IMG/VR virus record: IMGVR_UViG_3300046468_001139
Source of the DNA: a virus
Length of the DNA: 64,000 nucleotides
Reading direction: 5' to 3' (one strand)
A program made the translations under genes and the position numbers. Below the pieces are notes generated by a model, which was given only the letters and a program-made list of their open reading frames with translations, made no database searches and was not told the origin of the DNA. Below are positions 35,143-36,230 of this stretch, one piece after another (within the stretch, counting starts at the first letter, position 1; each line of letters opens with the position of its first letter).

Positions 35143-35373
35143 CTACCAGAACGGTTGCCCAGTCTTTTTAGCAGTCTCTAAGTTTTCTTTAATTAGTTTA
35201 GCGAATATTTCTCTATCTTCAGGACCCACTTGATACATTTCTTCAAGACTAATTGCACCACGCATGTACCAACACAGGCGTGCAAGTTCCATCTTGATGT
35301 TTTTTGTCTCGTTTTCTAGGTTGTCGACCAGTCTTAGGATATCCTCTAGAGACTTAGAAGCTATCCTTATACG
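35143..35373 (-). CDS. gp51-like baseplate/tail assembly chaperone domain, probably expressed by -1 frameshift from the gp26-like gene
   Basis: Open -1 frame RIRIASKSLEDILRLVDNLENETKNIKMELARLCWYMRGAISLEEMYQVGPEDREIFAKLIKENLETAKKTGQPFW*; the first ATG (35292) has no obvious SD. Confidence 0.7.
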   Translation of the reverse strand, partial: RIRIASKSLEDILRLVDNLENETKNIKMELARLCWYMRGAISLEEMYQVGPEDREIFAKLIKENLETAKKTGQPFW

Positions 35374-36230
35374 AAAAAATTTGATTGATCAAACGAAACA
35401 GGCATTTCCCATTGCTTAGGTGCGCCTTCTTTGATTTCTTCTTCTGTTGCGTCAACTGTGATTGGCTCTAACGTAAACTTTTTCTTTTGTGATTCCATAC
35501 TTTCAACAACAGAAGAATAAAACTTCTTGTCTGCATTTTGTATAAACTGTTGAATGTGTAATTTGTCAGTTACAACATCTTCACCTGTTTGGATCGATAC
35601 AATTCCTTGCATGACCATATCAACTGTAATACTTGTTAAGCGTTGGAATGCTTGATTAAAGATTTCTAGTTTTTGTTCTTCTGTCATATCATCTTCTTGT
35701 ATGACTGAAGCAATACGCTGTTCTTCAAAAGTCTTAGTTGCAACTTTTGTAAACTCACGATACGTTTGCGGCCTTACTGTAAGGGTAAGCTCGTCTATTG
35801 TAAGAGTATCATCAAACGCAACATTTTGAAACTTGTCAAGTACTACTCTTAAGTCTAGGTCAAATTTACGTTCTAGTTTTGTATTTGGGATTTTAGAAGT
35901 TAATTCTAATTTCTCCCCGTATGTGGCAATTCTAATAGCAACCAATAGTGTATCAATATCAAGTGTTGGTATGTCCCAACCGTTTTTAATATTAGGTACA
36001 CAACTTTGGATAACATCAACTGTAGATTGACCGTTAAGTAATGCATCAGGAGTTTTAAACATAAGTTCATCTCTTGCCGTCATTGCATAAACAGGGAATT
36101 CCATATTGTCTGTTACTTCTAAACTTCCATTAGGATACCATCTGCCGTTGCTTGGCAACTTAATGTAAATTTTTGGTTGCCTAAAATACTTCTGTAACGG
36201 ATTGGCTCCGCTTCTCTCTATTTCTGGCAT
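35367..36230 (-). CDS. gp26: Baseplate hub assembly chaperone gp26-like
   Basis: NPLQKYFRQPKIYIKLPS.G, MTARDE..FKTPDALLNG, D.D.LLVAIRIATYG; ends in ...NFFV; next to the tape measure gene. Confidence 0.75.
   Translation of the reverse strand: MPEIERSGANPLQKYFRQPKIYIKLPSNGRWYPNGSLEVTDNMEFPVYAMTARDELMFKTPDALLNGQSTVDVIQSCVPNIKNGWDIPTLDIDTLLVAIRIATYGEKLELTSKIPNTKLERKFDLDLRVVLDKFQNVAFDDTLTIDELTLTVRPQTYREFTKVATKTFEEQRIASVIQEDDMTEEQKLEIFNQAFQRLTSITVDMVMQGIVSIQTGEDVVTDKLHIQQFIQNADKKFYSSVVESMESQKKKFTLEPITVDATEEEIKEGAPKQWEMPVSFDQSNFFV

Follow-up and report, generated by a model that had tools for sequence, protein, structure and literature searches.

Organization of the locus

The viral DNA considered here, IMG/VR virus record IMGVR_UViG_3300046468_001139, was analysed as one stretch of 64,000 nucleotides (nt), referred to below as the window, and carries on its minus strand a gene similar to gene 26 of phage T4, whose 3' end overlaps a second open reading frame (ORF) displaced by -1. 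An earlier note, made from the letters of this DNA, had proposed that the two frames are joined by a programmed -1 frameshift, in the manner of the G and GT tail assembly chaperones of phage lambda. The comparisons presented below suggest that a single gene of the family PF12322 is very probably decoded in two ways by such a frameshift, giving proteins of 287 and 362 amino acids (aa). The features concerned are as follows:

35367..36230, minus strand: gp26-like gene in the 0 frame, predicted short form of 287 aa, from the ORF list; PF12322 and phrog_150; stop codon TAA at 35369-35367
35373..35379, minus strand: putative slippery heptamer T_TTT_TTC in X_XXY_YYZ phase, inside the frame overlap
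35368..35372, minus strand: spacer GTATA of 5 nt between heptamer and stem; the same spacing is seen in columns 14-18 of the alignment of relatives
35336..35367, minus strand: stem-loop of two stems of 6 base pairs around a G/A mismatch; 5' arm 35367-35355, loop 35354-35349, 3' arm 35348-35336
35143..35388, minus strand: open -1 frame; 76 codons after the slip at 35373-35146, stop codon TAG at 35145-35143; predicted to encode a helical extension resembling the tail of T4 gp51
35290..35292, minus strand: first ATG of the -1 frame, 27 codons past the slip site; the Met at this place is not kept in relatives

The 287-aa protein matches the T4_baseplate family PF12322 (E value 2.4e-9; 37.6 bits against a cut-off of 24.5) as well as the baseplate hub family phrog_150 of the PHROGs collection (E 1e-13), and its gene ends with AAT TTT TTC GTA TAA. 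The -1 frame contains a TGA at 35391-35389 and is open from 35388, leaving a 7-codon overlap (35388-35367) that holds the heptamer. Because the -1 frame is closed until 35388, any slip is confined to these 7 codons, and a shift into this frame is possible only within 35388-35370. A slip at the heptamer yields a conceptual fusion of 362 aa. Searched by itself, the -1 peptide gave no Pfam match above the cut-off and no PHROG match.

The earlier note had described a heptamer at 35379-35373, a 5-nt spacer and a hairpin at 35367-35336, along with a -1 frame open for 76 codons to a TAG at 35143 and a first ATG 27 codons in, and each of these was found where it had been placed. Its two predicted products, of 287 aa and about 362 aa, likewise correspond to the 287-aa ORF and, by sequence, to the 362-aa conceptual fusion.

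Conservation of the slip site among relatives

All counts of the heptamer refer to relatives, drawn from three clades and eight isolates, whose gene is divided between two frames. Each of these 244 split-type relatives, down to a protein identity of 30% (range 30-92%), carries an in-phase heptamer together with a -1 ORF (244/244), distributed as follows:

window, 80 IMG/VR relatives (49-92% identity) and the isolates Phosso, Atu_ph07, PA5oct, CBB and 121Q: heptamer and -1 ORF in 86 of 86
more distant jumbo clade, in which 75 of 80 loci are split: 75 of 75
cyanophage-type loci: 80 of 80
S-PM2, P-SSM2 and KVP40: 3 of 3

Across the split relatives the -1 ORF measures 57-77 codons where the contig does not end first. 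For the 86 loci of the window's clade and the five isolates, contigs that are long enough show the -1 frame open for 66-76 codons beyond the stop of the 0 frame, and the +1 frame closes after 2-49 codons. The distant jumbo clade has a -1 ORF of 76 codons in 71 of its 75 split loci and of 77 codons in one, the other three being cut by the contig end, and its 0-frame stop lies 1 to 7 codons past the heptamer; cyanophage-type -1 ORFs span 59-66 codons.

The same ORFs contain other Phe-Phe pairs, only 2 of 84 of which are spelt T_TTT_TTC, and in the window's clade the heptamer is always followed by G. Judged from these comparisons, the TTTTTTC spelling is constrained beyond what the amino acids need. 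Furthermore, one DNA sequencing run contains five extra contigs from other phages that match the window only over the 31 nt at 35363-35393, where the summed depth reaches 95, compared with 9.8 for the rest; by this measure, no other part of the gene is as conserved in nucleotide sequence among co-occurring phages as the slip region.

A covarying stem downstream of the heptamer

The hairpin at 35367-35336 is the minimum-energy fold of the window sequence at this place (-13.6 kcal/mol), and its distance of 5 nt from the heptamer falls within the 5-9 nt expected of a stimulatory structure in programmed -1 frameshifting. A gap-free structure alignment of 66 distinct relatives revealed two helices that share a 5' arm. 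The first, S1, begins 5 nt past the heptamer and pairs columns 19-31 with columns 38-50: 70% of the cells are paired, compared with 30-47% when the 3' partner is slid, and its covariation was reached by none of 500 shuffles. The second, S2, joins the 5' arm of S1 to a more distal 3' arm (columns 19-29 with 58-68) and has 69.6% of its cells paired, compared with 27-48% in the slid controls, its covariation being reached by 3 of 500 shuffles. Read by eye, the window's own row of the alignment pairs well in S1 and poorly in S2.

Folding energy was compared between the 50 nt past the heptamer and control segments of the same ORFs, and was lower downstream of the heptamer in each group:

window clade and isolates: -11.1 kcal/mol, control -6.0 kcal/mol, p 6e-10
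distant jumbo clade: -8.8 kcal/mol, control -6.5 kcal/mol, p 6e-4
cyanophage-type loci: -11.6 kcal/mol, control -6.1 kcal/mol, p 4e-9

In its phase and its invariant 3' C, the heptamer fits ribosomal -1 slippage of two Phe-tRNAs, as do the spacer of 5 nt and the covariation of the stem. Homologues without the heptamer, or with the downstream ORF in variable frames, had been named in the earlier note as the outcome that would speak against its proposal; the opposite was found, as all 244 split-type relatives keep both the heptamer and the -1 frame, and the stem, whose conservation in related phages the note had proposed to examine, covaries.

The -1 peptide and its annotation

Conservation of the -1 peptide sets in at the first codon past the slip; Phe-Phe-Arg does not vary within the window's clade, and the positions of Met differ among relatives. 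A profile of this extension matched 427 proteins at E<=1e-3 among 1.8 billion, mostly fragments of 40-100 aa with differing N-termini; such scatter is how gene callers behave where there is no true start. The phage records that we inspected either list separate genes or leave the -1 ORF unannotated. For instance, the records of S-PM2 and KVP40 annotate it as a short 'gp51', and in PA5oct the 70-codon -1 ORF is unannotated, leaving an 'intergenic' gap of 224 nt behind the baseplate hub gene (locus L003, 2352-2576). The record of CBB names the homologue of the 287-aa protein a structural protein.

In-frame long forms and the number of PF12322 genes

Among the best 150 matches of the extension profile, 17 are proteins of 319-351 aa that contain PF12322 followed, in one frame, by the extension at the extreme C-terminus. 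These in-frame long forms have one Phe at the junction, compared with two in the frameshift product, as would be expected if the T run differed by two bases. One such protein, of 350 aa and from the IMG/VR locus L092, aligns with the window's conceptual fusion from end to end (33% identity over 349 residues, E 1e-72). None of the isolate phages of the collection examined has an in-frame long form. Five IMG/VR loci do, and all five contigs bear a second, adjacent PF12322 gene. In L092 and L095, the two loci inspected in detail, this second gene encodes a short form whose end falls close to where the slip site would be.

The distribution of the slip site is the mirror image of this. Phosso, Atu_ph07, PA5oct, 121Q, CBB, S-PM2, P-SSM2 and KVP40 possess one PF12322 gene each, and all of them have the slip site. 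T4 possesses two, encoding gp26 (208 aa) and gp51 (249 aa), both full-length members of the family; genes 26 and 51 are divergent neighbours, and a run of six T's (T6) was not found in gene 26. On the sequences compared, relatives free of the slip site, seemingly including T4, would thus have a separate gene for each of the two forms. This complementarity between the slip site and a second gene constitutes the strongest argument for the frameshift, as it suggests that neither the short nor the long form is dispensable, the long one being provided by the frameshift.

The two L092 paralogues are 42% identical to each other, compared with 33-34% to the window protein, and since they are each other's closest relatives, duplication has probably replaced the frameshift more than once. 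The PF12322 pairs of L095 and T4 are far more diverged than that of L092.

Relation of the extension to T4 gp51

T4 gp51 possesses a C-terminal tail of about 48 aa beyond the length of gp26. In hhalign comparisons, the cyanophage -1 extension matched the T4-type gp51 tail with a probability of 97% (E 4e-11), aligned from Phe-Phe on, and it also matched the extension of the window's clade (E 9e-5). At whole length and in local mode, the fusion and gp51 are collinear (E 1e-3), with the slip site at the point where gp26 ends and gp51 continues. The family PF28602, which represents the gp51 C-terminal tail and is precomputed for gp51 homologues, was not among the precomputed annotations of the in-frame relatives.

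A related observation is already on record: Sullivan et al. (2010, PMC3037559) noted that the 'gp51' of cyanophages and marine vibriophage is without the first ~200 residues but is similar to the C-terminal part of T4 gp51. The record note of KVP40.0327 likewise states a likeness to the C-terminus of T4 gp51. The description of the downstream ORF as gp51-like in the earlier note therefore stands in part: its product resembles the gp51 tail by way of cyanophages and KVP40, but T4 gp51 as a whole corresponds to the entire long product rather than to the ORF. In Acinetobacter phage Stupor (MN662249.1), a gp51 homologue is annotated as 'tape measure protein assembly chaperone', without a frameshift.

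Predicted structures and cysteine pairs

AlphaFold2 modelled the short form with a predicted local distance difference test score (pLDDT) of 85 and a predicted template modelling score (pTM) of 0.79, its last 5 residues being disordered. The natural long form of L092 gave a pLDDT of 89.7 and a pTM of 0.86, and its extension comprises four predicted helices (residues 270-279, 283-310, 317-321 and 325-345) with pLDDT values of 81-94 by ten-residue block. A Foldseek search of the PDB with both models returned nothing below E 0.3, and a wide VIA-align search returned only generic helical-hairpin matches (residues 153-213; the best had a Z of 8.2 over 55 residues). Among PDB sequences, a profile search gave no relevant match and no solved relative, and no tail assembly chaperone family of the lambda type turned up in the Pfam and PHROG scans.

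The window protein and its marine clade are devoid of all four Cys of two CxxC pairs (residues about 113-121 and 262-272) which are reminiscent of a Zn ribbon and are kept in T4 gp26 and gp51 and in most relatives, among them the jumbo isolates and the in-frame long forms. This loss is a real difference, which we do not regard as defining for PF12322. The Cys-less C-terminal motif of the window protein recurs in the short paralogue of L095.

Genomic neighbourhood and occurrence

Four further genes flank the locus:

36304..38937, plus strand: tape-measure-like virion protein of 877 aa, divergent from the gp26-like gene; phrog_14121, E 5.5e-11
38937-40673, plus strand: T4-type portal gene, overlapping the 877-aa gene by 1 nt; PF07230, E 1e-108
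32828-34987, plus strand: low-complexity protein of 719 aa rich in Ala, Gly, Lys, Thr and Gln, convergent with the -1 ORF
32302-32817: protein of 171 aa similar in composition to the 719-aa protein

The 877-aa protein probably serves as tape measure, and Phosso, PA5oct, CBB, 121Q and L092 likewise have a large divergent gene of comparable kind next to the homologue. L092 encodes a tape-measure-like protein of 927 aa at 7153-9936 (minus strand), which by eye seems to terminate in a domain like a peptidoglycan peptidase (Ser-x-His-x-x-Gly and Asp motifs). A tape-measure-like gene followed directly by the portal gene is an order unlike that of T4.

The closest isolates, at 30-35% identity, are the jumbo myoviruses Phosso, Atu_ph07, PA5oct, CBB, GAP32 and the 121Q/PBECO4 group. 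Fourteen DNA runs of marine or seawater origin, each from a different study, contain the stretch completely, and six metatranscriptome runs contain parts of it. The window phage is an abundant marine, T4-related jumbo phage that is widespread in seawater.

Discussion

How could one gene give rise to two proteins here? Most ribosomes would stop at the TAA and release the 287-aa short form, the likely equivalent of gp26. A fraction would pause at the stem-loop located 5 nt downstream of the heptamer while Phe-tRNAs occupy UUU and UUC; both tRNAs could then re-pair one base back on U_UUU_UUC, after which the -1 frame would be read for 76 codons. The resulting long form of 362 aa would bear an extra helical C-terminal domain corresponding to the tail of T4 gp51. 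In this manner, a single gene might deliver a pair of hub-assembly chaperones at a fixed ratio, following the logic of lambda G and GT.

Several points weigh against this proposal. The slipping of ribosomes itself, its rate and the roles of the two forms are what we infer from support at the sequence level. Within the window alone, TTTTTTC was seen 23 times, compared with 25 expected, and the hairpin is unexceptional (z-score -1.0), so that the significance of the slip site rests on the relatives. A direct hhalign comparison of the window-clade extension with the gp51 tail gave a weak match (E 2e-3 to 0.02), and the extension profile found no match in the T4 genome, for which reason the homology between the extension and the gp51 tail leans on the cyanophage intermediate. 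Cyanophages and KVP40 have an ATG 2-3 codons past the slip site, and independent initiation could therefore add to expression there. Lastly, contigs from RNA libraries of three studies, all of which cross the T6 run without an insertion or deletion, may derive from DNA and drop rare variants; slippage by RNA polymerase at a low level could thus have gone unrecorded.

Of the other explanations, the one that survives best, itself improbable, assumes two separate genes, the second encoding a small free gp51-like protein that is made from its own start or by termination-reinitiation, with the heptamer being the spelling of a conserved Phe-Phe. GenBank records do annotate two genes, and in addition to the early ATG of cyanophages and KVP40, the window has its own at 35292. 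However, the peptide is conserved from the slip site on, 27 codons ahead of the window's ATG, its Met positions vary, and gene callers choose many starts or, as in PA5oct, leave the ORF out altogether. The spelling of the heptamer, with 244 of 244 at the site and 2 of 84 elsewhere, exceeds what a Phe-Phe pair would demand, and the in-frame homologues show that the two parts work as one chain. Moreover, a scan for promoters and terminators gave nothing above chance near the junction and no promoter-like site between the 0-frame stop and the ATG at 35292.

Slightly less probable still is slippage during transcription, in which RNA polymerase would add one U or drop two on the T6 run and ribosomes would read the edited mRNA. 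A homopolymer run lies exactly at the junction, and the sequence of the in-frame relatives, which have one Phe and not two, is what the loss of two T's would give. Nevertheless, known runs of transcriptional slippage comprise roughly nine or more bases, more than this T6, while the phase, the 3' C and the covarying stem at a 5-nt spacing are ribosomal hallmarks without a role for the polymerase. The RNA-library contigs show T6 without an indel, although rare variants would escape them. That the overlap arose by chance or by misassembly, or that the gene is decaying, with no second product, is scarcely credible, although the unremarkable number of heptamers in the window would agree with it. 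The arrangement recurs in 244 independent loci, which come from isolates and metagenomes and show protein identities of 30-92%, and this number excludes sequencing error; 14 DNA runs contain the full stretch, and the -1 peptide is conserved.

The -1 frameshift hence remains the explanation that we favour, and it would be of the tail-chaperone type, here in a protein family and a phage lineage for which it is not on record. Full-text literature searches, outside of which the key subscription papers lay, yielded no report of a gp26/gp51 frameshift, and the baseplate and hub are unmentioned in the PRFect paper. To our knowledge, a tail-chaperone frameshift has not previously been found in the T4 lineage.

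T4 is the reference phage for contractile tails, and gp26 and gp51 are the least understood of its tail-assembly genes. If the frameshift occurs, gp26 and gp51 would represent the two arms of one short/long chaperone device, encoded by a single recoded gene in most of the T4 superfamily, and the tail-chaperone frameshift would reach into the T4-related lineage. Corrections would then be due in hundreds of records that place a 'hypothetical protein' or truncated 'gp51' behind gp26, and testable predictions would follow as to the stoichiometry of the two forms and the role of the helical extension.

A broader possibility, which we put forward tentatively and rate at somewhat less than even, is that the short/long pair of PF12322 constitutes the tape-measure/hub chaperone system of the whole T4 superfamily, comprising the cyanophages, the KVP40-like phages, the Rak2/121Q-, PA5oct- and Atu_ph07-like jumbo phages and the marine giants. 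The -1 frameshift would be its usual and possibly ancestral mode of expression, and genes 26 and 51 of T4 one of several independent duplications that replaced it. It would make sense of both the requirement for gp51 in small amounts only and its absence from virions, and the T4 group would no longer be an exception to the rule of tail-chaperone frameshifting.

Comparison with known systems

In E. coli dnaX, the source of tau and gamma, a -1 slip takes place on a homopolymeric heptamer followed a few nt downstream by a stem-loop. The window shares with it the homopolymeric heptamer and the downstream stem-loop. The dnaX shift truncates the protein and is aided by an upstream Shine-Dalgarno-like stimulator, whereas the shift in the window would extend the protein, and no such stimulator was seen upstream of its heptamer.

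The resemblance to lambda G and GT lies in a putative -1 slip towards the 3' end of an assembly-chaperone gene that neighbours the tape measure, a slip which would produce a short and an extended form at a fixed ratio. Xu, Hendrix and Duda are said to have described in 2004 that the -1 frameshift of tail assembly chaperone genes is conserved. The heptamer of lambda is G_GGA_AAG, in contrast to the U_UUU_UUC of the window. In lambda, the ratio of the two products is 30:1, and neither is part of the virion (Atkins et al. 2016, PMC5009743). Sequence searches with the window protein detected no chaperone family of the lambda type, and the fold searches gave no match. In addition, the window gene is divergent from the tape-measure-like gene instead of lying upstream of it in the same orientation, as is also the case in T4 and L092. 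The G/GT comparison drawn in the earlier note is upheld for the logic of a short and a long form, in view of how slip sites and gene numbers are distributed and of the in-frame fusions. The functional half of the analogy, namely binding of the tape measure and recruitment of tube or hub proteins, would follow from logic only.

The short 'gp51' of cyanophages and KVP40 is the same downstream ORF, in the -1 frame and with the heptamer at the end of gp26. The sources treat it as a truncated separate gene, without mention of a frameshift (PMC3037559; KVP40.0327). The window's extension differs in being about 16 residues longer than that of cyanophages and in having no start codon near its beginning.

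According to the older T4 literature, gp51 acts in small, catalytic amounts, with which a long form made at a low level would fit. In Table 2 of Leiman et al. 2010 (PMC3004832), T4 gp26 and gp51 figure as 'hub assembly chaperones', and according to this review gp51 is required but absent from the particle. The window differs from T4 in having one gene with a putative frameshift in place of two divergent genes, the T6 run being absent from gene 26, as well as in the size of the short form (287 aa compared with 208 aa for gp26) and the lack of the two Cys pairs. What the two have in common is a PF12322 system with a short and a long member, in which the tail of the long one aligns with the -1 extension by way of the cyanophages, and a gene that adjoins the hub/tape-measure cluster and is transcribed divergently from it. 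The proposed frameshift would also offer a direct explanation for the gp26/gp51 pair of T4.

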